Part shown: positions 4,655 through 27,192 of the stretch, piece by piece
Layout: the number at the start of each line of letters is the position of its first letter
Numbering within the stretch: position 1 is the first letter of the stretch
Position numbers and translations under genes: made by a program
Notes under the pieces: generated by a model
The model's input: the letters and a program-made list of their open reading frames with translations, nothing else
What the model was told of the DNA's origin: nothing
Databases searched by the model: none
Assembly (NCBI GenBank): GCA_949293385.1
Contig: CASFDQ010000130.1
Span: forward strand, 1-42,932
Direction of reading: 5' to 3'
Origin: an uncultured bacterium
GTDB lineage: Bacteria; Bacillota; Clostridia; Oscillospirales; Acutalibacteraceae
Length of the DNA: 42,932 nucleotides

Positions 4655-5482
4655 ATGAAAATAGTAAACTGCGGCTACGACTACCGTCACGACGAGACCT
4701 TTCGAATAAATCGCCCGAGCGGAACGGGGGACTGTATACTGCTTATCCTCCGCTCCCCCGGATTTTTCGTGTTTGAGGGGAAAACCCACCGAAGCAGGGG
4801 AAACGCCGTCGTGCTTTTTAAGAAGGATACGCCTCAGCTCTACGGTGCAGACGGTGCTGAATTTATAAACGACTGGGTGCATTTTGAGGCCGAAGACGGT
4901 GATATGAAGCGTTACGAGGCTCTCGGACTTCCCTTCGACAGGGTTTTGGAGTTTGAAAACGTAAATGAATTTTCGAAGCTTATTAAAAATATTTTCTTCG
5001 AAAAATATTCGCAAAGTAAAAATAATACCGAGTCGGCCAAGCTCTATTTCGAGCTTATTATGTTCAAAATCTCCGATCTGCTCGATAAAAACGATATGAC
5101 CTATTCTGCTTTGTCTGAGAAGCTGTCGGAGCTCAGAAACGCGATATATTCAAACCCGCAAAGGGATTGGTCGGTTGAGAAGATAGCGAAAGAGCTTTCG
5201 GTAAGCCTTTCTTATCTTCAGCACCGGCATAAGCAGCTTTTCGGGAACAGTATAAAAAGGGACGTGACCCTGAGCCGAACGGAATACGCAAAATACCTGC
5301 TCTACAGTACCGACTATACCGTCTCGGCGGTCTCCTCCCTCTGCGGCTACGAAAACGACGTTCACTTTATGCGGATATTTAAGAAGGAAACGGGCTATAC
5401 CCCGACGAAATACCGCGAGGCAAAAAGCATTTCTTCCGAAAAGGTAAAGGAGTCGAAAAGATATATGCCCTTTTCTCTGTGA
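4655..5482 (+). CDS. AraC family transcriptional regulator
   Basis: C-terminal AraC HTH (GYENDVHFMRIFKKETGYTPTKYR). ATG at 4655 lies 9 nt after a GGAG; the ORF-track start at 4640 is a TTG. Confidence 0.85.
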   Translation: MKIVNCGYDYRHDETFRINRPSGTGDCILLILRSPGFFVFEGKTHRSRGNAVVLFKKDTPQLYGADGAEFINDWVHFEAEDGDMKRYEALGLPFDRVLEFENVNEFSKLIKNIFFEKYSQSKNNTESAKLYFELIMFKISDLLDKNDMTYSALSEKLSELRNAIYSNPQRDWSVEKIAKELSVSLSYLQHRHKQLFGNSIKRDVTLSRTEYAKYLLYSTDYTVSAVSSLCGYENDVHFMRIFKKETGYTPTKYREAKSISSEKVKESKRYMPFSL

Positions 5483-5497
5483 CCAAACTATAAAAAC

Positions 5498-5532
5498 AGC
5501 AAAAGCGAGGTGGATCTCACCTCGCTTTTGCT
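5498..5532. terminator. Bidirectional terminator between convergent AraC genes
   Basis: 15-bp stem agcaaaagcgaggtg / cacctcgcttttgct with a 5-nt loop, flanked by A and T runs. Confidence 0.75.
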
Positions 5533-7510: not shown

Positions 7511-8260
7511 ATGAACGATTTCGGATACTATAAGGCTGTTATCGAAAACCTGGAGAAGGTAAATGCGACTCAGGAGGAAAACATCAAAAAGGCGGCCTCC
7601 CTTATGGCAGACGCCATTGAAAACGACCGTCTTATAAACGTTTACGGAGGCGGCGGTCATACCACCCTGCCGGTCGGCGAAATGTTTTTCCGTGCGGGTG
7701 GCCTTTCCTGCATCAATCCCGTAATGGAAACGGGACTTTCGGTCTTTAATCAGGCCCTTAAATATTTAGAGCTTGAAAGAACCGTAAACTACGGTAGCTC
7801 GATAGTAAAATATTACGACCTTAAAAAGGACGATCTTCTTATAATTTTCCACAATATCGGAATCAATCCCGCTACCATCGACGCGGCAATGGAGGCCAAA
7901 AAGAAAGGCGCTAAAATAATAGCCGTTTCAAGCGAGGCCTGGCAAAAGGAAATGCCTGCCGATCACTTTATCCGTCATCCTAACAAGACGAATCTTTTTG
8001 ATTACGCCGACGTTTGCATAGAGGATTTCAACCCCGTCGGTGACGCCGTTGTAAATGTCCCCGGACTCGACACCCCCATCGGACCCGTTTCCAACATCGT
8101 CGATTTCTATATTGCACACCTGCTTGAGATCGAATGTGTAAGGCAGTGCATCGAAAGAGGCATCACCCCTCCCGTTTGGTCAAGCGCAAACACCCCGGGC
8201 GGTGACGAGAAAAATGCGGCCTACCTTGAAAAATACAAGCCTAGAGTTAAAATGCTTTAA
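7511..8260 (+). CDS. SIS (sugar isomerase) domain protein, UPF0309-like
   Basis: The motif NVYGGGGHTTLPVGEMFFRAGGL and the ~250-aa size are typical of the UPF0309/SIS family. It begins 3 nt after the preceding gene. Confidence 0.7.
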   Translation: MNDFGYYKAVIENLEKVNATQEENIKKAASLMADAIENDRLINVYGGGGHTTLPVGEMFFRAGGLSCINPVMETGLSVFNQALKYLELERTVNYGSSIVKYYDLKKDDLLIIFHNIGINPATIDAAMEAKKKGAKIIAVSSEAWQKEMPADHFIRHPNKTNLFDYADVCIEDFNPVGDAVVNVPGLDTPIGPVSNIVDFYIAHLLEIECVRQCIERGITPPVWSSANTPGGDEKNAAYLEKYKPRVKML

Positions 8261-8274
8261 AGGAGCTGAAAGCA

Positions 8275-8967
8275 ATGACAAATTTACAGGAAAAGCTCGA
8301 TTTTCTTACCGAAAAATACGACGTGGAAAAAAGAGCGGTGCTAAAGGATGAAAAAACCGTTATAATAGACGGTCGGGATATCCCCCTTTTCTCACACCGA
8401 CTTGAACGCAGATTTATCGAGCTTAAAAACATCGTTCAGGGCGGTACTCTCGTGGGTATCAGCGTTATGCGTGTTGCTCGTATCGTAGAAAAGGGATCGG
8501 ATATTTTTGCCGAGCTTTACCGAGAGCTGGACATCTGTCAGTACGTTTTAGGGAGAAAGCTTGTCGGAATTACCGCTATGCAAAACGACAATACCCTTAA
8601 TCTTATCGCAACCGCAGAAGAGGGCATCGTTTGCACCTTAGAGATATCCGCCACCCTTAAGGAGGGAGAGCCCGCAAAGGATAAGCACGAGATCATTTCT
8701 CAGCGCGGTATAGCCTGCGACGTCGTTGTTGACGCACAGCTAAAGCAGGACTCCATCTACCTTTTCGGCTCCGAGAATAAGAAATTCACCGACGTTGATT
8801 TTGAGCTTTACGGACTTTCTGCCGAGGATATCGCGATCGTTCGTTCTGCCTTTACTGCCACCCAAAAGGGTACCGAGGAGGAGCTCCTGGCCGCCGATTC
8901 CAAGCTTAAGGCGTTGGTGGAAAAGGCAAGAATTTCCGCCGAAACCGGAGAAAGGCAGGTAATATAA
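8275..8967 (+). CDS. Hypothetical protein, possibly a Gfo/Idh/MocA C-terminal-like domain without a Rossmann fold
   Basis: 230-aa ORF with no recognisable motif. It is translationally coupled to the next gene (stop TAA, then ATG immediately). Confidence 0.35.
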   Translation: MTNLQEKLDFLTEKYDVEKRAVLKDEKTVIIDGRDIPLFSHRLERRFIELKNIVQGGTLVGISVMRVARIVEKGSDIFAELYRELDICQYVLGRKLVGITAMQNDNTLNLIATAEEGIVCTLEISATLKEGEPAKDKHEIISQRGIACDVVVDAQLKQDSIYLFGSENKKFTDVDFELYGLSAEDIAIVRSAFTATQKGTEEELLAADSKLKALVEKARISAETGERQVI

Positions 8968-10080: not shown

Positions 10081-10086
10081 TATCGG

Positions 10087-10269
10087 TTAATATCCGTTAT
10101 ATCCGTTATAACGGTCTATAATGTTCCTTACCGCCCGAAAAAACCTTTCAGCGTCACTATGTATCTCCAATGGGTCGCCTTCGCGAATCCGCATAGTGCG
10201 ACGGATTTCTTTGGGGATAACCACACGACCCAAATCGTCTATTCTACGAACAATTCCGGTGGCTTTCAT
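10087..10269 (-). CDS. SpoVT/AbrB-type swapped-hairpin DNA-binding domain only; truncated SpoVT-like copy
   Basis: MKATGIVRRIDDLGRVVIPKEIRRTMRIREGDPLEI is nearly the canonical SpoVT N-terminus. After residue ~37 the similarity ends. The ORF stops after 60 aa, inside a tandem 9-nt repeat (atccgttat x2, encoding NGYNGY). The C-terminal GAF-like domain of SpoVT is absent. Confidence 0.7.
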   Translation of the reverse strand: MKATGIVRRIDDLGRVVIPKEIRRTMRIREGDPLEIHSDAERFFRAVRNIIDRYNGYNGY

Positions 10270-10357
10270 AATTATATAAAAACTCCTTGCTTTACAGACC
10301 TGACTGTTAGTATCTGTAAACACACGAGATTTATACTGCGCGAATTGACTTTTTAAT

Positions 10358-11110
10358 CTATGCCATTGTTTTAAGCATTTCTAACGTCACTTCATATCGG
10401 CAGGGTCTGTTTTGGATAAGCTTTTCGTATTCTTCTTTCATATATTCGCCCATTCGGCGTACTTCATTGCCTGAGCTTCCTGCGATATGAGGCGTGAGAA
10501 TGCAGTTTGGCAGAGTGTAAAACTCGCTGTCGCTTTCGGGCGGCTCGGGGAGGGTCACATCAAGCAGAGCCGTAAGGTCGGGGCGCGCTTTCAGTACCTT
10601 TATCAGATCTGCTTCTACAACCTGTGCCCCACGTCCCGTGTTGATAAAGGTGGCGTTAGTAAGCATCGTTTCAAACAGCCTGCCGTCTAACATCCCTTTG
10701 GTCTGCTCGTTATTGGCAAGGTGATTGGATACCACCTGACATTCCTTGAAAAGCGTTTCAAGGCCGACCTTTTTAACTCCAAGCGCAGCGGCTTTTTCAT
10801 CCGGCAAAAACGGGTCAAAGACCAGCACCTCAAGATTATAGCTTTTAAGCATATTTATGACCAGTTTGCCGATCATTCCCGCTCCGATGATTCCGATCTT
10901 CACATCATAGTTTCCGGGATATGAGTGGAAGCATTGCGAAGCGGCTTTGCGGTCACCCGTTTTTGCAAGGCGGCTGCTTCTGAAAAAAGCCCTTGTTGGC
11001 TAAAACTATCTGCGCCACGGTATATTCGGCAACGGGTACGGCATTGGCCGCCCATGCGGAAAAGCCTTATAATACGGCAGTATTACTGCATTTTTCATCT
11101 TCGCTTTTGG
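10358..11110 (-). pseudogene. D-isomer-specific 2-hydroxyacid dehydrogenase, frameshifted and 5'-degraded
   Basis: The intact 181-aa ORF covers only the NAD-binding and C-terminal part (KIGIIGAGMIGK...TPHIAGS). Upstream, the expected catalytic-domain segment GFSAWAANAVPVAEYTVAQIVLANKGFF is readable in another frame (about 10960..11050). It is preceded by an in-frame stop and followed by a TGA. Confidence 0.75.
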
Positions 11111-11310
11111 AAACAAAGTTACACCTACAAAACTGCTACGCACCCGAAAATGGATGATTTTTATGTAAGAAAAGGCAAAAAACCACGGTAACGCTGACGC
11201 GTCGTTAGTGAAGTTTTTGTTTTAGCATAGAATAATATATCGGGTTAGAACCAGCATCGCATTTGTATGTACAAATACAGTTGGGCAGTAGCCCAAACCC
11301 ACTAACAACA

Positions 11311-11353
11311 GAAAAGAGAAGATTCGTTTTTGCAACGAGTCTTCTCTTTTTTT
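11311..11353. terminator. Strong stem-loop with flanking A/T runs (bidirectional terminator-like)
   Basis: gaaaagagaagattcg / cgagtcttctcttttt (one mismatch) followed by TTTTTTT and preceded by an A-rich run. Confidence 0.6.
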
Positions 11354-11362
11354 GCCTGTTAA

Positions 11363-11607
11363 GTGATATGCTGACTAAAGTCAGCGTGATATTTTCTTTT
11401 GAAAATTCCTCGTCTATAGAGAGATATTTCCAAAAGAAAGTGATATTAAACCCTACGGGTTTAGTGATATTCTATTCGCCCGTAAACTTGCGAAGCAAAT
11501 AACACTCGACTGAAAGTCGAATATCACTGCGCAGCAATATAACTCGCCGTTAGGCGAATAGAGCTGCAGAAATGTTCGCTAAGAACATTTCTACTAACCC
11601 GTTCGGG
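11363..11607. repeat. Mini-hairpin array B with iterated GTGATAT motif
   Basis: GTGATAT occurs at 11363, 11386, 11440 and 11464, with an inverted ATATCAC at 11521. The motif copies bracket unrelated hairpins: gctgac/taaa/gtcagc, tttcttttg...caaaagaaa and taaaccc/tac/gggttta. Further hairpins are tcgac/tgaaa/gtcga, tcgcc/gtta/ggcga, gaaatgttc/gctaa/gaacatttc and ccc/gttc/ggg. Confidence 0.8.
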
Positions 11608-11629
11608 CGGTTATGATTAGGTATTCAGT

Positions 11630-13236
11630 TTACTTTACGGAGCTTTTTTTGCGGAAAACCAAGACTGCCGTAAGGATGGAAAGACAGGCTGCGGCCACGA
11701 CTGCCTAGTGGAGGACCGCCGAGCTGTCACCGGTGGGTGGGATCTCAAGCTCTTTCCACTGTGCGTAAAGCACGAGATCTCGGTCGCCCATCGTAAGCAT
11801 ACGCTCGGGATCGATGGTTACGCCCTTGCCGTCGGGAATCCGGTGCCAGCCGAGGAACATATATCCGTCGGCGGTAGGCTTCTCGTCGCTGACATAAAAT
11901 TCCTGATAAGAATAATATTCTCTGCCTTCGGGCATTTCGGCATCGACGCCGTTAGCGTCGTAGATAAGCTTATGGCAGTTTCCGAAGTAATCGTCAATAT
12001 CGGCCGCCGCTTTAACTACGGGAGCAGCGTTTTCATCCGCCTTATAAACGACGCCCGCAAAATTAGTATCTGCGGTCATAACGTCGGCGGTTTTGCCTTT
12101 AGCAAAGATGTTAGCGTCGATAAGATCGAAGGAGGCGGGAGCAATAAGGAAGATGCCCGCGCTGTCGGCCGCGTTTTCGGCCTCTGCGAGTCCGCTGATC
12201 AAACCGCCCTTAACCTTAACCGCGGAGGTGAAGATTCCGTAGGCCTCGGCCTCGCCACGGGATTCTCCGACGATCTCGCTTTCTTCGGCGTCGATTGACG
12301 GCGCGATAATTCCGTTGCTGATATCATCTCCGAGTCCGCCTGTGGCATCGATGTAGGAGGAGATCGCCTTAAGGGTACCGTGGCAAACAAGACCTGCACT
12401 TACCGTGGCGTCTCTGGCTTTGGCGTTAAGCCGGCAGTCCTCTAAGGTCGCGTCTGAGCTTACGAAAATACCATAATTTCGGGAGAATATCCCGTCGTCG
12501 GCATATACTTCGTCTGTTCTGGCTTCAATAACGCTGTTTTTAGCTACGAGCTTTTTTGTTTTCAGGGCGCAAAGGGCAAGATCGTCCTCCGCTCCACCGG
12601 GATAGCTCTGTTCCTCCAAATAGCCTGCGCAACTGAAGTCGAGCTCGGCGTACGAAGCGGTAAGAGTGCCTCCGACGGTCAATGCGTAGGAGTGGGGCTT
12701 GAAAGGGTCGGAATCGTCATAGGCTGACACGGATGCGCCAAAGCTTCCGCCGCTGACCGTAAGGTTGTTCTTAATAAACGCTCCCTCGTAGTGACCTGAA
12801 AAGTCGATCTCCAAGTCCTCTGTGCCGTAAAAGTTGGTCTCGTCGGCAAGAGAATAAAGTCCGTGCTCGCTATTAAAGCCGCAGTCTCCCTCAAAGGTGA
12901 AATCTACCCTTGAAACGCCGTCGGCAACGTAAATTACCGAATAGTCGGGAATAGTCGTTTCGTTATATTCCGGGGGTAAGCGTTGAGGACGTAGAGGTCT
13001 CGCAGGGTCACCTTGTGGGAACCGCTGAGGATCTTAATGTTATGGCCGGTGAAATCGGAGACTTCTCCGAAAATGACGTGACCGGGACATTCGGCACCGC
13101 AGTCGTTTATCACCACCGAGCCTGCAGAGATATCGTGCTGAATAGCGGTGGGCGTTTCGGCGTAGGCGGTAACGCCCGCCATAGTAACGAGCAGACCCAG
13201 AGCTAAAATAAGGCTTAAAATTCGTTTTTTTATAAT
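11630..13236 (-). pseudogene. Cell-wall-anchored surface protein with a Listeria-Bacteroides (Flg_new) repeat. It has three lesions: no canonical start, a frameshift and a premature amber codon.
   Basis: A signal peptide (IKKRILSLILALGLLVTMAGVTAYA) is readable from 13236 behind a GGAGG, but its first codons are ATT/ATA. The reading frame shifts at the G5 run 12972..12976; one extra base would join ...LNAYP to PEYNETTIPDY.... The C-terminus has a Flg_new-like module (YMFLGWHRIPDG...LVLYAQW) and then IPPTGD. TAG at 11705..11707 is followed in frame by AVVAAACLSILTAVLVFRKKSSVK. Together this is a complete LPXTG-type sorting signal split by a stop codon. Confidence 0.7.
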
Positions 13237-13247
13237 GCTTCCTCCGT

Positions 13248-13287
13248 GGAAATAGGGTTATTTATATATATAAATAACCCTATTTCC
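13248..13287. repeat. Perfect 40-bp palindrome abutting the RBS of the surface-protein gene
   Basis: ggaaatagggttatttatat | atataaataaccctatttcc: 20+20 nt with no mismatch and no loop. It lies 2 nt from the GGAGG (13241..13245, minus strand). Confidence 0.9.
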
Positions 13288-13499
13288 CCCGTTTGTCAAT
13301 AAGTCAGCCACAACAACAAGAAAACAAATGTATTCCTCATGGAAAAAACGAACCATATCAAAAAACGAGGTCCCCCACATCGTTTTTTACATTCCGATCA
13401 TTCTTCTGTATTCCCCGGGAAGGGGAGCCTCCGCCACACGTGAGCCCGCTCGATATTATCGTTGATATACTGCCGCGCCAAAAGCAAAGTCACGTTTCT

Positions 13500-13982
13500 C
13501 TATTCGTTTTCGCTTAAGACAGCGCCGCTGTGAATAGCGCCGACCTGCTCTAAGCCGTCAAACTCTATTTCGTAGCTCGTGTCGTTTAATTTGATAAGCT
13601 TAAAGCTTTCTAAGGTATCTCCCGAATAACCTTCAAAGGTCTTTTCGGTTACGGTTAGGTTTATGTCACCGTTACCGTCCTCCTCGTAGGTGCCCAAAAT
13701 ATCGCCGAAGCCCTCGTAGAGATTTACCTGCATTTTAAAGGTGAGATCTTCCTTAAGCTCTATATGTGCGGCGGGATACATCGAATCCTCCATGGGGCAG
13801 ACTATGGTTTTGTTAAGACCTTCGGTCTCGTCGATATCCCCGATCTTATCGACCGAGGGTACGAGATCCGATACTGCGGGAACCTTTTGCGCGGACTTTT
13901 CTACCCTTGCCAAAAGCAGGGAGCAGCCGCTGAGAGATAAAACGAGAGCTACGCTAAGGGTTAAACATAAAAGCTTTTTCAT
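13500..13982 (-). CDS. Lipoprotein, function unknown
   Basis: Signal peptide with lipobox (LVLSLSGC). Confidence 0.7.
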   Translation of the reverse strand: MKKLLCLTLSVALVLSLSGCSLLLARVEKSAQKVPAVSDLVPSVDKIGDIDETEGLNKTIVCPMEDSMYPAAHIELKEDLTFKMQVNLYEGFGDILGTYEEDGNGDINLTVTEKTFEGYSGDTLESFKLIKLNDTSYEIEFDGLEQVGAIHSGAVLSENE

Positions 13983-14001: not shown

Positions 14002-14748
14002 TTATTCTTCTAATAAATAACGAAGCATTCTTTCGGGGTTCTCGAGAAAGCTTTTCGTTATATTAAAATGCTCGGTATCCTTATACTTGACCTCTTTTAT
14101 ACCCTTGTCCGAAAACTCCAATATCTGAGCCTCGGGGAAGGTCATAAGGATAGGGGAGTGGGTCGCGATAATAAACTGTGAATCCTTTTTAACAAGGCGG
14201 TTCATTTCGCTCATAAGGGTCATCAGCCGCATAGGGGAAAGAGCGGCTTCAGGCTCGTCAAGTATATAAAGGCCTTTTCCGCCGAAGCGGTTTTGAACGA
14301 TAGCAAGAAAGCTTTCGCCGTGGGACTGATGATGTAGGGAGGTACCGCCGTAGCTTGCCGAAATAGCGGGAGAAGCGGCGGCGATACGGTCGAGCTCCTC
14401 GATATTCGTGGCGACGTTATAAAGGCTTTCGGCGCGGAGGAAAAAACCGTCCTCTGCGAAGCCTCTTTTAAGAAGGGTAAGATTTTTAAAGAGGGGCGAA
14501 TGGGTCTCGTTCGTTGAAAAGCAGAAATTTCTCGTTCCCCCCTCGGCGTTAAAGCCGAAGGCTACCGCAATAGCCTCAAGCAAGGTCGATTTTCCCGTAC
14601 CGTTTTCCCCGACGAAAAAGGTAACGGCCTCGGAAAAGCGAAGCTCCTTTTCGTCCTCTAAATGCTTTACTGCGGGAAGGGAATTCAGGTAAGAACCTTC
14701 GGGTAAAGTTCCTTCGAAAAGCAGGCCGCTTATATATTTTGCTTTCAT
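14002..14748 (-). CDS. Stand-alone AAA/ABC-like ATPase (COG3910-type predicted ATPase)
   Basis: Walker A GENGTGKST, Walker B LYILDEPEAALS and a downstream IIATHSP (H-loop). It is 248 aa with no partner permease. Confidence 0.7.
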   Translation of the reverse strand: MKAKYISGLLFEGTLPEGSYLNSLPAVKHLEDEKELRFSEAVTFFVGENGTGKSTLLEAIAVAFGFNAEGGTRNFCFSTNETHSPLFKNLTLLKRGFAEDGFFLRAESLYNVATNIEELDRIAAASPAISASYGGTSLHHQSHGESFLAIVQNRFGGKGLYILDEPEAALSPMRLMTLMSEMNRLVKKDSQFIIATHSPILMTFPEAQILEFSDKGIKEVKYKDTEHFNITKSFLENPERMLRYLLEE

Positions 14749-17141: not shown

Positions 17142-17774
17142 ATGGAAAACTTATCCGCCTTTTTATCCGAGGTTATCAGGCCTTCCGAGATAACCACCCC
17201 TACCGAGCCCTATTTTGACGTTACGAAGCACGGCGTTGTCGGCGACGGGGTCACCAATAATACGAAAGCCATAAACGAGCTTATAAAGTCGGTTTCCGGG
17301 GGAATAATATTCTTCCCTCCCGGTCGCTATCTTACGGGAACCATAATGCTTAAAAGCAATATGACCCTTTATTTGACCAGCGGCGCCGACTGCAAGGATA
17401 TGGAGCTTTTCGATTTCGGTCCCCGTCCTCTTGCCGACGATACCCCCGTTATGGAGGACATCTCCATAAATAACGTGATGGTCCGAAGGGCTACCGTCGC
17501 CGCAATGTATATTTTCGGCATACCCGAGCGTCCGATTAAAAACCTCCGTGTTCATAACTTCTCGGTCGAAAGCGTTATAGACCCCGCTATAAGACGGGAG
17601 CCGGTTATGATGCCCACCTTCGAAAAAATGCAGGGTAAGGGAATAATAATTAAAAACGTTTCCGATTCGGTCTTCTCCGAGATTTTAGTCACTACCGAAA
17701 ACGTGCCCCTCGAGTACGAAAACCTCGAAAACGTCACCTTCAACGGCAAAACCCTTGCGGCTGTGCCGCAGTGA
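17142..17774 (+). CDS. Pectate-lyase-superfamily / GH28-like protein, short form (probable internally deleted remnant)
   Basis: The N-terminus FDVTKHGVVGDGVTNNTKAINELIK...IIFFPPGRYLTGTIML is the Pectate_lyase_3/GH28 entry motif. The protein is only 210 aa, and I cannot find the central catalytic coils (NTDG, DD, HG, RIK-type motifs). The stop codon TGA (17772..17774) lies inside the first GTGATAT repeat. Confidence 0.6.
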   Translation: MENLSAFLSEVIRPSEITTPTEPYFDVTKHGVVGDGVTNNTKAINELIKSVSGGIIFFPPGRYLTGTIMLKSNMTLYLTSGADCKDMELFDFGPRPLADDTPVMEDISINNVMVRRATVAAMYIFGIPERPIKNLRVHNFSVESVIDPAIRREPVMMPTFEKMQGKGIIIKNVSDSVFSEILVTTENVPLEYENLENVTFNGKTLAAVPQ

Positions 17775-18139
17775 TATTCGCCTTCGGCGAGTGATATAGG
17801 GCTTTGCCCTGTGATATTTTTCCTTCGGAAAAGTGATATATTTTGCCTTTGGCAAAATGTTAACGTGTCTCCGACGGATCATATACGGCTTCGCACGAAA
17901 TATATTATACATCTTCCGGTCGGAAAACGATGTTGCCTTACGGCAAATGATGTTATGCTTCGCATAAACGATGTTGCGACTATCGTCGCAAACGAAATTT
18001 TTCCGTAGCGGTGGAGGGATAGTGCTCCCTCGTGAGATATTGCAAATTAGAATAAATTTCTACGGAGAGCGTAGGGGAGGGGCTTGCTCCTCCCGTGAGA
18101 TATTGCAAATTAAAATAAATCTTTTCGGCTACGAAAAAA
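17771..18139. repeat. Mini-hairpin array D: GTGATAT x4, AAAYGATGTT x3, 63-nt tandem duplication
   Basis: GTGATAT at 17771, 17791, 17811 and 17833, each followed by a different 5-8 bp hairpin with a TTC/TTT loop. GATGTT at 17929, 17949 and 17970, each followed by a hairpin. CGTGAGATATTGCAAATTA occurs at 18031 and 18094. The segment 17921..18015 is 92/95 identical to 26070..26164. Confidence 0.85.
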
Positions 18140-18140
18140 C

Positions 18141-18176
18141 ACCCGCTAAGCGTAAAAACTTAGCGGGTTTAAATTT
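18141..18176 (-). terminator. Terminator of the PHP-phosphatase/MBL operon
   Basis: 10-bp stem acccgctaag / cttagcgggt, followed on the minus strand by GTTTTTTCG. Confidence 0.7.
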
Positions 18177-18959: not shown

Positions 18960-19697
18960 TCAGAGGGTTATTATCATATCGTCGGTTGCTCTCGTTACGG
19001 GAATGTTTGGAAGGAGTCTCGTCATCTCGATAACCGACTCTAAAAATCTGTCGGAATAGTGGTTAAAGCAAAGCATTTTAAGGTTTTCGTTACCCTCGAA
19101 TAAGGGGAGATATTCGGTTGCCTTAAAGTGAGCGGCTTCACAGATCGCAAGGTCAAGCGGAGCTTCTAAAACCGAAAGGGGGAAATCCTCTTTCGGACCC
19201 TTATGGCAAAGGTCGCCGCTGAACAGTACGCGCTTGCCTTCGGCCTCTACGAGATAAGCATAAGAAGGAGTGACGGAAGTATGTAGGGTCTTGAAAGCAG
19301 TAAGCTTTATAATGCCGTCATCGTAAATCACACCTTCAGCAACTTCTAAAAACTCGAAGGGACGCATCTTGGTACCGGTGAGAGAGATCCAGTCGTTAAT
19401 GACCCCTCTTGCCTTTTCGGGGTCGCAGGGAAAATACACCTTGGGGTTTGCCTTCAGGAATTTCCAACTGCAAATATCTAAAAAAGAAATAACGCCGTTA
19501 GTGTGGTCTCCGTGCATATGGGTAAGGAAAATTGCCTTGACCGACTCAATAGGAATTCCGCGGTTGCGAAGCCCCTCCGAAGACATAGTTCCCATATCGA
19601 TAAAATAACGGTTTTCACCTACCTCAATAAGGGTGGATGAGCATCTTCTGTGGGGCTCGGGATATCCGTGACTTGAACCGAAAAAAGTTATTTTCAT
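18960..19697 (-). CDS. MBL-fold metallo-hydrolase (RNase Z/YhfI-like)
   Basis: HxHxDH motif (THMHGDH) and an N-terminal beta-lactamase-fold pattern (KITFFGSSHGYP...). Confidence 0.75.
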   Translation of the reverse strand: MKITFFGSSHGYPEPHRRCSSTLIEVGENRYFIDMGTMSSEGLRNRGIPIESVKAIFLTHMHGDHTNGVISFLDICSWKFLKANPKVYFPCDPEKARGVINDWISLTGTKMRPFEFLEVAEGVIYDDGIIKLTAFKTLHTSVTPSYAYLVEAEGKRVLFSGDLCHKGPKEDFPLSVLEAPLDLAICEAAHFKATEYLPLFEGNENLKMLCFNHYSDRFLESVIEMTRLLPNIPVTRATDDMIITL

Positions 19698-22025: not shown

Positions 22026-22134
22026 GAGGTTTAGGGAAGAGGGATGAGGGACGAGGGGATTTCACGTAAGAACGATATAAATTTGTTTTCCCTCCTCCCT
22101 TTTCCCTTATCCCTAACCATTAAAGCTAAACCTC
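22026..22134. repeat. Imperfect inverted repeat whose two arms are each a canonical G-quadruplex motif, one per strand
   Basis: Plus strand 22034..22058 reads GGGaagaGGGatgaGGGacgaGGGG. Minus strand over 22090..22113 reads GGGataaGGGaaaaGGGaggaGGG. Both arms consist of heptad repeats. An outer perfect 9-bp stem gaggtttag (22026..22034) / ctaaacctc (22126..22134) encloses them. Confidence 0.8.
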
Positions 22135-25857: not shown

Positions 25858-26189
25858 CCGTAATTCGGTTGTGCACAGTGAATTACGGCGAGCGTAGGAG
25901 GCTCTGTTCCCCGCGTTTTAAACTTAAATGCTTATAAGAGAAAAACGGCTACGATGCTCGGCCATCTCCGGTGGGAGAAGGGGGACCACGACCCGTAGGG
26001 TCGTATTTCCGCCCGCAGGGAGGAACACCGTTTTGCGCCAAAGGCGCAAATATCGTTTTCGTTTGCGGACGGAAAACGATGTTGCCTTACGGCAAATGAT
26101 GTTATGCTTCGCATAAATGATGTTGCGACTGTCGTCGCAAACGAAACTTTTCCGTAGCGGTGGATGAGGCATATCGTAGCCGAGTTTTT
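25858..26189. repeat. Mini-hairpin array F, closed by a long-range helix
   Basis: Contains at least 9 hairpins, including ccgtaattc...gaattacgg, ctcc/ggtg/ggag, acgaccc/gta/gggtcgt, ttgcgcc/aaa/ggcgcaa and cgttttc...gaaaacg. It includes the 95-nt block shared with array D. The 10-bp helix cggctacgat (25946..25955) / atcgtagccg (26173..26182) is flanked by AAAAA and TTTTT. Confidence 0.85.
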
Positions 26190-26409: not shown

Positions 26410-27192
26410 TTGAAGATACTTGCCGTAGGCGACGTATGCTCTGAGGGCGGAACGGAATTTCTCCTTAAAACCCTTCCTAAAATAAAAAAAGAATACGGTA
26501 TCGACTTTACGGTGGTAAACGGAGAAAATTCCTCGGTCTCAAACGCGATCTCTGCCGACTCTGCCGCCCTTATTTATGCGGCGGGAGCCGACGTTATAAC
26601 CGGCGGTAATCATACCCTTCACCGAAAGGATTTCCGTCCACTTCTCGATAGCGACGACACCCTGCTTCGTCCCGATAATATGCCTAAGGCCGAATTCGGG
26701 AAGGGCTACTGCCTCTATGATATGGGGCATACTAAGATAGCGGTCATAAACCTGCTGGGTCAGACCTACCTAGAGCTTCACGAAGCCGAAAACCCCTTTA
26801 CCTGCGCCGACCGGCTTATCGAAAGGGCCGAAAACGACGGCGCCGATCTCATACTTCTGGATTTTCACGCCGAGGCCACCAGCGAAAAGGTCGCAATGGG
26901 ACTCTATCTTGACGGAAGGGTCACGGCGGTATTCGGAACGCATACCCACGTTCAAACCTCCGACTGCAGGGTTCTGAAAAACGGAACGGCCTATATGACC
27001 GATCTGGGTATGACGGGCCCCGAGGACGGCGTTCTCGGCGTAAAAGCCGAAATTATTATCGACCGTTTTAAAAACGGCGGTACGGGACGCTTTACTCACG
27101 CCGAAGGAAACTGCGTCCTCGAGGGAATGATAATAGAGGCCGACAAAAACAGCGGAAAAGCAATTTCGGCTACGGCCGTTCGTATTAAATAA
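26410..27192 (+). CDS. ymdB: YmdB-family metallophosphoesterase (2',3'-cyclic-nucleotide phosphodiesterase)
   Basis: Motifs GDV...VVNGENS...GGNH...DFHAEATSEK...GTHTH. TTG start. Confidence 0.88.
   Translation: MKILAVGDVCSEGGTEFLLKTLPKIKKEYGIDFTVVNGENSSVSNAISADSAALIYAAGADVITGGNHTLHRKDFRPLLDSDDTLLRPDNMPKAEFGKGYCLYDMGHTKIAVINLLGQTYLELHEAENPFTCADRLIERAENDGADLILLDFHAEATSEKVAMGLYLDGRVTAVFGTHTHVQTSDCRVLKNGTAYMTDLGMTGPEDGVLGVKAEIIIDRFKNGGTGRFTHAEGNCVLEGMIIEADKNSGKAISATAVRIK

Follow-up and report, generated by a model that had tools for sequence, protein, structure and literature searches.

The GTGATAT hairpin array of an uncultured Acutalibacteraceae bacterium is a copy of the Gut-1 RNA motif, itself one half of a modular, dispersed intergenic repeat

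What is an intergenic array in which a constant heptamer alternates with hairpins of unrelated sequences? Such an array is found in contig CASFDQ010000130.1 (GenBank assembly GCA_949293385.1), a stretch of 42,932 nucleotides (nt) from an uncultured bacterium of the Acutalibacteraceae (Clostridia, Oscillospirales), which we analysed over its full length and hereafter call the window. The original prediction, made on the DNA letters, described four copies of GTGATAT, each followed by a self-complementary spacer, and treated them as belonging to no known family. Scanning the whole window against Rfam at gathering thresholds yielded two matches, one tRNA and Gut-1 (RF01706). The latter covers positions 17769-17844 of the + strand and residues 1-77 of the 77-residue model, with 65.1 bits for a gathering score of 50 (E = 7e-11), so the absence of a known family has to be abandoned. 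In the alignment to the model the four linkers read GUGAUAU and every modelled stem pair is formed. We assign the array to the catalogued Gut-1 RNA motif, an identity that we regard as secure. As Gut-1 was already catalogued, the finding represents a new copy of a rediscovered motif.

17769-17858, + strand: Gut-1 array of the 'B-half' type defined below, with four GTGATAT linkers and four perfect hairpins (sequence read directly; Rfam RF01706)

Direct reading places the linker starts at 17771, 17791, 17811 and 17833, and the hairpins at 17778-17790, 17798-17810, 17818-17832 and 17840-17858, as predicted to the base. All four hairpins are perfect, namely TCGCC/ttc/GGCGA, AGGGC/ttt/GCCCT, TTTTCC/ttc/GGAAAA and ATTTTGCC/ttt/GGCAAAAT. 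The array was also correctly said to begin inside the stop codon of a GH28-like open reading frame (ORF), since the TGA within the first GTGATAT (17771) terminates the ORF at 17142-17774. The first hairpin (TTCGCC/GGCGA) and the last one (TGCC..GGCA, followed by GTT) are those conserved in B-halves elsewhere. The array is devoid of the distal stem strand and of the A-half that characterize complete elements (see below), and two other arrays that we collected, in loci L051 and L159 (at 5401), are likewise truncated.

GTGATAT occurs 12 times in the window, versus 2.8 expected, and 8 or 9 of these copies fall in two arrays. Arrays of at least three identical 7-mers with hairpin spacers are found once in the window and in none of 200 dinucleotide-preserving shuffles. 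The proposed non-randomness is right, as is the logic of a constant single-stranded linker with a variable hairpin. An assembly artefact, which the original prediction had asked to check, is unlikely because a separately listed metagenome contig of the European Nucleotide Archive (L001) carries a 100% identical array sequence. The period of about two helical turns is coincidental, as the heptamer spacing varies from 20 to 26 nt and tracks stem length.

Gut-1 was reported from 43 examples, without organism or function and in human gut samples only, and was rated 'RNA: certainly' and cis-regulatory 'probably not' (Weinberg et al. 2010, PMC2864571). Rfam classes it as 'Gene; sRNA', and we found no later study of Gut-1 in full-text literature searches. 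The array shares with it three to four short variable hairpins between constant (G)UGAWAU linkers, the first hairpin UUCGCC/GGCGA and, to judge from its relatives, which are gut MAGs (metagenome-assembled genomes) of humans and animals and gut phages, a gut-associated habitat. It differs by its GUGAUAU linker, whereas the consensus linker is GUGAAAU (CAaUGAAAU-hairpin-GUGAAAU-hairpin-GUGAAAU-hairpin-UGAAAU). The Rfam model comprises three hairpins and omits a long-range stem, an A-half of opposite orientation, a terminator-like hairpin and the multi-copy nature of the element, all described below. Gut-1 had been linked to the human gut and to no known organism, whereas here we place it in MAGs of Oscillospirales, including some from animal guts, and in phage contigs.

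We collected related arrays from 80 related genome loci, one metagenome pattern scan and three viral-contig scans, L-numbers designating the loci. The pattern scans were dominated by chance matches and tandem repeats; among the matches listed, approximately 13 of 120 metagenome loci and approximately 12 viral loci were true arrays. Copies are thus present outside the contig, as the original prediction would have it, in other genomes and in metagenome and phage contigs, and nine of these related arrays match the Gut-1 model at 54-75 bits. The hairpin units located between like linkers form a set of 130 distinct, unrelated sequences, 120 of which are perfectly paired; they show no excess of G·U pairs and so do not prove an RNA. 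In L226, a unit is duplicated, with a compensatory change from A-T to G-C between the copies.

Comparison of these arrays revealed that a complete element is approximately 200-230 nt long and consists of three parts, a GC-rich terminator-like hairpin, a B-half and an A-half. The B-half, which is the part modelled in Rfam, reads TTATATTCGCC-loop-GGCGA, linker, variable hairpin, linker, variable hairpin, linker, TGCC-loop-GGCA, GTTTnACC and GGCGAATATAA. Two pairing partners are available to its 5' segment TTATATTCGCC, the neighbouring GGCGA and the distal GGCGAATATAA. The A-half is made of three to four simple GTGATAT+hairpin units in the orientation opposite to that of the B-half. The same layout recurs in L029, L207, L245, L258 (twice), L259, L278, L306, L314 and the seed sequence BAAZ01000095 of Weinberg et al., whose raw alignment has reverse units (hairpin-AUAUCAC) following the Gut-1 hairpins (PMC2864571). 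It is also found at a second place in the window:

11363-11470, + strand: A-half of the second element, with GTGATAT linkers at 11363, 11386, 11440 and 11464 and their hairpins
11471-11566, - strand (Gut-1 sense): B-half of the second element, with the stem TCTATTCGCC (11471-11480) / GGCGAATAGA (11553-11562) enclosing three hairpins

The A-half of this second element comes after a terminator hairpin at approximately 11314-11346, whose T-run extends to approximately 11353. Its B-half harbours the alternative local hairpin TCGCC-gtta-GGCGA, and its match to Gut-1 on the minus strand (11494-11566; 42.9 bits, E = 3e-7) lies under the gathering score.

The long-range stem of the B-half could be aligned in ten B-halves, in which its 11 pairs are formed in 97% of cases, with substitutions on both sides (AU in six, CG in two and UA in two B-halves for one pair; CG in seven and GC in one for another). 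Its covariation score is 0.141, versus 0.024 in shuffles, and none of 500 shuffles reached the former value; compensatory changes among copies, called for in the original prediction, are therefore present. The local hairpin that competes with this stem is also kept, with 94% of cells paired. In the subfamily with GTGAAAT linkers, the same design is made with a wholly different sequence, GAAATAAATCC/GGATTTATTTC, and the local hairpin is AAATCC/GGATTT. Conservation of the design with a different stem is our strongest indication that the architecture is conserved and not the sequence. We conclude that the elements of uncultured gut Oscillospirales and their phages are modular, hairpin-rich repeats dispersed between genes, of which Gut-1 makes up one half; we regard this conclusion as secure. 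We also considered a 'ladder' in which GUGAUAU of one half pairs with AUAUCAC of the other to form stacked four-way junctions. It was rejected, as no compensation for the degenerate B-half linkers (GTTATAT, GTGTTAT, GTGGTAT and GTTCTAT) is ever seen in the A-half, whose linkers remain GTGATAT, and many arrays have no reverse partner. Of note, the L303 metagenome contig ends inside a Gut-1 element with approximately 20 nt, CTGTCTCTTATACACATCT, that we take to be a Nextera adapter left untrimmed in the public assembly.

Related arrays had been announced in five more intergenic regions of the window, with 40-50 hairpins. Just two further regions qualify, the element at 11363-11566 and a repeat at 26063-26164 (see below); the other hairpin-rich intergenic regions of the window harbour ordinary terminators and isolated palindromes, without constant-linker arrays.

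Linkers vary from array to array. Beyond GTGATAT and GTGAAAT, we identified ATGATAT(A) in L175, ATTACAT(A) in L135, TCGATAT and ATGAAAT both in L159, GTGAAGT in L189 (58 bits to Gut-1), TGAAG in L179 and TGAAT in L188. Most have a Y-G-A-W core in common. Linker identity is a property of the array and not of the genome, and linkers are nearly invariant in A-halves and looser in B-halves. In L159 (regions 5250-5500 and 8100-8500), the arrays behind two paralogous genes of near-identical 3' ends differ in their linkers, with ATGAAAT after a terminator in one case and TCGATAT straight after the stop codon in the other. This indicates that arrays are replaced faster than genes diverge and that the linker type is not fixed per genome. 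Shine-Dalgarno-like pairing of GUGAU with the 16S rRNA 3' end, MazF (UACAU) and ToxN (AAAU) sites, selenocysteine insertion sequence (SECIS) elements and UGA stop codons in all three frames were considered and set aside, as they fit some of the linker variants only.

The elements are dispersed. The copies in L314, L278 and L207 are approximately 93-95% identical over approximately 225 nt and have sharp boundaries and unrelated flanks; in these three copies, aligned with their flanks, we found neither terminal inverted repeats nor target-site duplications. The 11-bp inverted repeat of the element is internal and encloses the B-half alone. Two or three arrays each are present in L258, L098, L270 and L159. 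The closest relatives of the window are L123 and L124, whose orthologous spacers between the GH28-like and PHP-domain genes have no array, just the common terminator and a GTAGCGGTGGATGAG motif. Near-identical copies in unrelated flanks and absence of the array from the closest relatives identify the element as a dispersed repeat. At the site of the array and at that of the repeat at 26063, the sequence of L123/L124 is replaced rather than cleanly interrupted, and a target duplication is not readable there. The element at 11363-11566 sits in a segment of 3.4 kb that is missing from L123. This segment (10081-13501) also harbours a truncated fragment of a 2-hydroxyacid dehydrogenase gene (10358-10903), a gene for a protein with Listeria-Bacteroides repeats (11705-12814) and hairpin-rich spacers. 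In the spacer 12815-13499, an 18-bp perfect palindrome with a 4-nt centre (13248-13287, GGAAATAGGGTTATTTAT atat ATAAATAACCCTATTTCC), unrelated to the arrays, may be an operator or a terminator.

The 11 single-orientation arrays are all situated 0-85 nt 3' of an ORF or tRNA gene of the same strand, and between convergent genes each half is sense-oriented relative to its nearer gene. Arrays are also found inside phage head-gene clusters, between co-directional genes (L029 and L098); the phage relatives of L029 are phages of Oscillospiraceae, Ruminococcus and Acutalibacteraceae. Arrays often adjoin genes for stable RNAs, including 5S rRNA (L135), transfer-messenger RNA (tmRNA; L175) and tRNAs (L258, L051, L396, L445, L451 and L455). 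Complete Gut-1-type elements are located directly behind the terminators of such 5S rRNA, tmRNA and tRNA genes in L135 (220-630), L175 (10970-11542) and L258 (3783-4700), as well as in L396, L445, L451 and L455. The element adjoins an ORF for an IS256-type transposase, truncated at its N-terminus, in L458 and L468. The idea that the arrays are integrase arm-type sites near tRNA genes was discarded: the ORFs beside the arrays in L451, L455, L458, L468, L396 and L445 do not code for integrases (one product looks like a four-helix bundle by eye, and another is the truncated IS256-type fragment), and arrays also occur far from tRNA genes.

In the window, the array lies between convergent genes, namely a + strand ORF with a pectate-lyase fold (the GH28-like ORF) and a PHP-domain gene of the - strand. 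Relatives of the PHP protein in species-representative genomes all belong to uncultured Clostridia of human or animal guts, labelled Oscillospiraceae, Acutalibacteraceae or 'Eubacteriales'. We identified 80 relatives in Oscillospiraceae/Acutalibacteraceae MAGs, the best being those of L123 (84% amino acid identity) and L124 (77%). The window and L123 are collinear, their nucleotide sequences being 84-93% identical, and the flanks of the array site are 84-91% identical. The remainder of the window is ordinary chromosome, with genes for glycoside hydrolases, AraC regulators, RecG, FakA, YmdB and a uracil permease; among the Pfam matches of its ORFs, we saw no transposase, integrase, cas or rep genes.

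18141-18168, both strands: predicted bidirectional intrinsic terminator common to the GH28-like ORF (+) and the PHP gene (-), kept in L123

Sequence prediction found no promoter-like site between 17775 and 18140. With this terminator downstream, the anatomy makes 17775-18140 the 3' untranslated region (3'UTR) of the + strand ORF, and the whole 365-nt stretch is predicted to be co-transcribed with the latter. The GH28-like ORF itself codes for 210 residues, versus 458 for its orthologues in L123 and L124, and nucleotide alignment reveals an in-frame internal deletion of approximately 756 bp (at 17389-17397). The gene that bears the array in its 3'UTR may therefore be a remnant.

The original prediction extended the array to 18139. 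The sequences 3' of the Gut-1 array comprise other modules, which are as follows:

17859-17913, + strand: spacer between the two hairpin series, without homologue in the collected loci
17914-18015, + strand: repeat D1, 102 nt, four hairpins with AAYGATG linkers, then ACGAAATTTTTCCGTAGCGGTGGA
18014-18139, + strand: 63-nt tandem duplication, GC-rich hairpins then CGTGAGATATTGCAAATTA(G/A)AATAAAT at 18031 and 18094
17998-18138, + strand: long-range complementarity around the duplication, TTTTTCCGTAGC (17998-18009) / GCTACGAAAAA (18128-18138)
26063-26164, + strand: second copy of repeat D1, 95% identical, between divergent genes and upstream of the YmdB-like gene (26410-27192)

The second series of hairpins announced there is present, with GATGTT at 17929, 17949 and 17970, each followed by a hairpin, and so are the 63-nt tandem duplication at 18031/18094 and the closing complementarity. 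In the spacer, GCACGAAATATATTATACATC (17893-17913) may be, judging from its letters, a decayed form of the distal stem strand and first reverse linker (GGCGAATATAATATCAC) that close complete elements. The hairpins of D1 are TTCC/GGAA, TTGCC/GGCAA, TTATGC/GCATAA and TTGCGAC/GTCGCAA, and its loop types (ttac, ttc and tatc) are the same as in the Gut-1 array. D1 has no Gut-1 match in Rfam even at E <= 10, and we found no copies of D1, the spacer or the 63-nt unit outside this organism in approximately 2.2 Mb of collected loci. At the orthologous site in L123, the closest relative, the segment with the second D1 copy is missing or gives way to other sequence. The hairpins of the duplication (GAGGGA..TCCCTC, then GGAGG..CCTCC) have diverged between the two copies; the constant parts, which define repeat family D2 (18031-18065 and 18094-18128), have one difference over the first 27 nt. 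The last ~40 nt of the duplication are orthologous to L123. The segment tttttccgtagc (17998-18009) is complementary to gctacgaaaaa (18128-18138), and the two pair in the minimum-energy fold of the minus strand. A motif, CGTAGCGGTGGA(T/G)GAG, ends both D1 copies (18005-18022 and 26154-26171) and is also found in the GH28-PHP spacers of the array-free L123 (~10888) and of L124, and it represents a conserved short element.

Several other features of the window deserve mention. The second D1 copy is located approximately 245 nt upstream of the gene for the YmdB-family phosphodiesterase (26410-27192), possibly by coincidence; in Bacillus, RNA processing dependent on RNase Y has been linked to YmdB. 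A gene for a protein with a metallo-beta-lactamase fold (18960-19697) has a weak, sub-threshold match to the anti-Pycsar Apyc1 family and is apparently missing at the same place in L123 and present in L124. A gene for an AAA_21 (AbiEii-like)/SMC-type ATPase (14002-14748) is accompanied by a 160-residue ORF without Pfam match (13500-13982); adjoining the inserted segment, the two may constitute a small defence-type pair. Finally, a long, imperfect inverted repeat at 22030-22115, with heptad-like runs on its arms (AGGGAAG... versus TTTTCCC...), is kept and partly duplicated in L123.

What, then, might these arrays do? Of the roles put forward at the outset, a structured 3'UTR or non-coding RNA family and a non-autonomous repeat element fit the data, and iterons on DNA are disfavoured by the variable spacing and the absence of a replication gene nearby. 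Our preference, held tentatively and with slightly less than even confidence, is for a repeat akin to the repetitive extragenic palindromic (REP) and BOX families that would be co-transcribed with its neighbours and would act on the transcript as a 3'-end hairpin array. To the observed family membership, architecture, dispersal and orientation bias, this reading adds putative transcription, a putative barrier or processing function and possibly a trans-acting factor. By analogy with REP sequences, the small, very stable hairpins would block 3'-to-5' exonucleases, and the exposed G-A-W-rich linkers might be where an endoribonuclease such as RNase Y enters or cleaves, or where a protein binds. 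The elements would spread or turn over as repeats and would be tolerated or selected mainly just 3' of genes, including those for tRNA, tmRNA and rRNA, in the sense orientation. The dependence of spacing on stem length (20-26 nt) is in keeping with a single strand that folds and speaks against double-stranded sites in phase, and the arrays between co-directional phage head genes fit an RNA role inside operons.

Other observations speak against this view or are neutral. In the curated set, with its 120 perfect Watson-Crick hairpins of 130, mismatches of the G·U type (three) are as rare as those of the A·C type (four), and in a noisier set the numbers are eight and nine. An RNA selected on one strand would be expected to show an excess of G·U; as there is almost none, the stems give no strand signal. 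Folding energies do not discriminate between strands either, both folding far better than shuffles (z = -4.9 and -8.2; -11.7 and -12.6). The loops in the linker sense are TTC, TGC, TTT, TAC and TTAC (22 TTC, 11 TGC, 8 TAC and 8 TTAC), which on the opposite strand become GNA or GNNA loops closed by C-G. We take such loops to be of the hyper-stable DNA mini-hairpin type and in part of the RNA GNRA type, and their presence on the opposite strand would suit a role in single-stranded DNA (ssDNA). Moreover, many arrays are located 3' of a predicted terminator (the window element at 11363, L051, L159 and L189), so that their transcription would need read-through. The halves are in reverse order in L135 and L175, half-arrays abut gene starts in L278, L245 and L179, and the second D1 copy (26063) occupies a 5' region. 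Lastly, a pure exonuclease barrier does not explain the conservation of the linker within an array.

The main competing explanation, which we consider less probable though of appreciable weight, is a selfish or neutral dispersed repeat that acts as ssDNA, similar to REP sequences and their REPIN pairs or to miniature inverted-repeat and palindrome-associated transposable elements (MITEs and PATEs). A transposase-like enzyme, for instance of the HUH/Y1 type, would recognize the hairpins and the 7-nt linker and copy the element, and the site bias would reflect harmless insertion. This would account for the near-identical copies, free of target-site duplications and terminal inverted repeats, in unrelated flanks, for the absence of the array at orthologous sites of close relatives and for the several copies per genome fragment (the window, L258, L098, L270 and L159). 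Perfect palindromic stems without G·U excess and with GNA/GNNA loops on one strand point the same way, as do the copies adjoining tRNA, tmRNA and 5S rRNA genes, those in phages and the one abutting the truncated IS256-type transposase ORF. However, REP, REPIN and MITE copies keep their sequence, and here the stems differ among units and elements; no transposase was found in the window or beside the arrays examined; the strict sense orientation of the 11 simple arrays requires additional selection; and the two linkers in one fragment of L159 are awkward for a single cognate enzyme. This explanation and the co-transcribed 3'-end array that we favour are not mutually exclusive. An extension of the ssDNA idea, which we consider speculative and of low probability, is that Gut-1 elements are the non-autonomous partner, in Clostridia, of a system resembling REP sequences and their RAYT (REP-associated tyrosine) transposases, with an ssDNA enzyme that reads units of mini-hairpin and 7-nt linker. 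If so, the linker would be the cleavage or guide sequence, the GNA-loop hairpins would be on the acting strand, and the elements would be amplified behind tRNA, tmRNA and rRNA genes and terminators and in phage operons, with the two-state fold of the B-half gating the reaction. Linker identity would then follow the specificity of the enzyme, and arrays would lengthen by one unit at a time.

An independent trans-acting small RNA (sRNA), as Rfam classes Gut-1, is unlikely. It would be a sponge presenting single-stranded YGAWAU sites that titrate an RNA-binding protein or nuclease, in a layout like that of CsrB/RsmZ. The rating of Gut-1 by Weinberg et al. (certainly RNA, probably not cis-regulatory; PMC2864571), the repeated single-stranded motifs between hairpins, the covarying, closed B-half domain and the terminators that follow each half, in its own sense, in L175 and L135 are all in line with it. 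Nevertheless, there is no conserved promoter upstream; the array of the window starts inside a stop codon, an anatomy pointing to a 3'UTR more than to a gene of its own, and others start 20-85 nt after one; linkers differ among arrays, even within the L159 fragment; and presence/absence among close relatives together with multiple copies is unlike a conserved sRNA gene. We give distinctly little credence to a chromosomal site acting at the DNA level, whether a target of gyrase or a nucleoid protein like bacterial interspersed mosaic elements (BIMEs), or a heptamer-binding array (iterons, or omega-type WATCACW heptads). Like BIMEs, the arrays are located between convergent genes and 3' of genes for tRNA, rRNA and tmRNA, and heptamers occur in both orientations; ATATCAC includes ATCAC, which we take to be the core of the omega-repressor heptad. 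Nonetheless, double-stranded sites would lose phase with a 20-26-nt spacing that follows stem length, and on this ground we rejected double-stranded iterons or phased protein sites. Linkers also vary among arrays (GTGATAT, GTGAAAT, ATGATAT, TCGATAT, GTGAAGT and ATTACAT), loop composition is strand-asymmetric, and simple arrays are strictly sense. Least probable of all, in our estimation, is a cis-acting two-state RNA switch, whereby the 5' segment of the B-half would toggle between the adjacent GGCGA and the distal GGCGAATATA and control read-through or decay. Both pairings are indeed maintained (97% and 94% of cells paired), L259 changes all three segments together (TTCGCG, CGCGA and CGCGAATAGAA), and the GTGAAAT subfamily retains both pairings in a different sequence. 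Yet no conserved core resembles a ligand pocket, the array of the window and several others have no distal strand, and the pattern becomes trivial should the distal segment be no more than 'linker + first arm' copied in inverted form.

Gut-1 has been in Rfam since 2010. This analysis adds a host clade, uncultured Oscillospirales and their phages, and a larger architecture, in which the closed B-half has two competing pairings and is joined by an inverted A-half and a terminator-like hairpin. It also describes Gut-1 as a dispersed, fast-turning-over repeat with array-specific linkers and a strong bias to the sense side of gene 3' ends. These additions make an orphan motif experimentally approachable. 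In gut metagenomes, such arrays can be misread as sRNA genes or as CRISPR-like loci; they also flag places where intergenic turnover is concentrated.

Among known systems, CRISPR arrays share the regular alternation of constant and variable segments with the Gut-1 arrays. Their logic is inverted here, with a constant, unstructured linker of 7 nt, variable palindromes of 11-19 nt and three to five units per array. As CRISPR require repeats of 23-47 nt and non-palindromic spacers, and no cas genes are among the Pfam matches of the window, we rejected this assignment. Neither are the arrays integron attC sites: their units are 20-26 nt long (57-141 nt for attC), with no cassettes between them, no RYYYAAC/GTTRRRY core sites and no integrase seen. 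Plasmid or phage iterons of 17-22 bp in fixed phase were set aside in view of the 7-nt constant part, the 20-26-nt spacing and the absence of a rep gene in the window. A type III toxin-antitoxin array was rejected, as the units differ and the neighbours are a pectate-lyase-like ORF and a PHP gene rather than a toxin of the ToxN/CptN/TenpN type. Like CsrB/RsmZ and ToxI, the arrays would show a short recognition motif many times on a hairpin-rich RNA. However, Csr motifs (GGA) are in loops and belong to sRNAs with their own promoters, neither of which is seen here, and ToxI consists of identical 36-nt repeats beside a toxin gene, unlike the present arrays.

The closest parallels are REP/BIME sequences and BOX elements. 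With the former, the Gut-1 elements share short extragenic palindromes in mosaic clusters and both orientations, location at gene 3' ends and between convergent genes, multiple copies and strain variability; REP sequences stabilize upstream mRNAs as 3' hairpins. The original prediction had set the array apart from REP/BIME and attC, and the defining sequence features of both are absent from it. REP sequences are conserved imperfect palindromes of approximately 35 nt with a GTAG/CTAC foot, whereas here stems differ from unit to unit, the linker is constant and there is no such foot. BIME units alternate in orientation, whereas the Gut-1 element has two blocks of opposite orientation. REP/BIME of Enterobacteria and Pseudomonas have RAYT transposases, whereas none was seen in the 43-kb window and the taxon is Clostridia. 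The terminal inverted repeats and target-site duplications of MITEs are lacking in the three aligned copies. The BOX elements of Streptococcus pneumoniae (boxA-boxB(n)-boxC) are likewise modular, dispersed intergenic repeats with a variable number of internal hairpin modules and conserved ends, and are co-transcribed with neighbouring genes, as predicted for Gut-1; their modules, however, are 45-59 nt long and sequence-conserved, without a constant 7-nt linker, and have no sequence similarity to the Gut-1 element. The question is thereby framed as whether Gut-1 is the Clostridial counterpart of REP and BOX, a 3'-end stabilizer or processing site, or a mobile ssDNA element.

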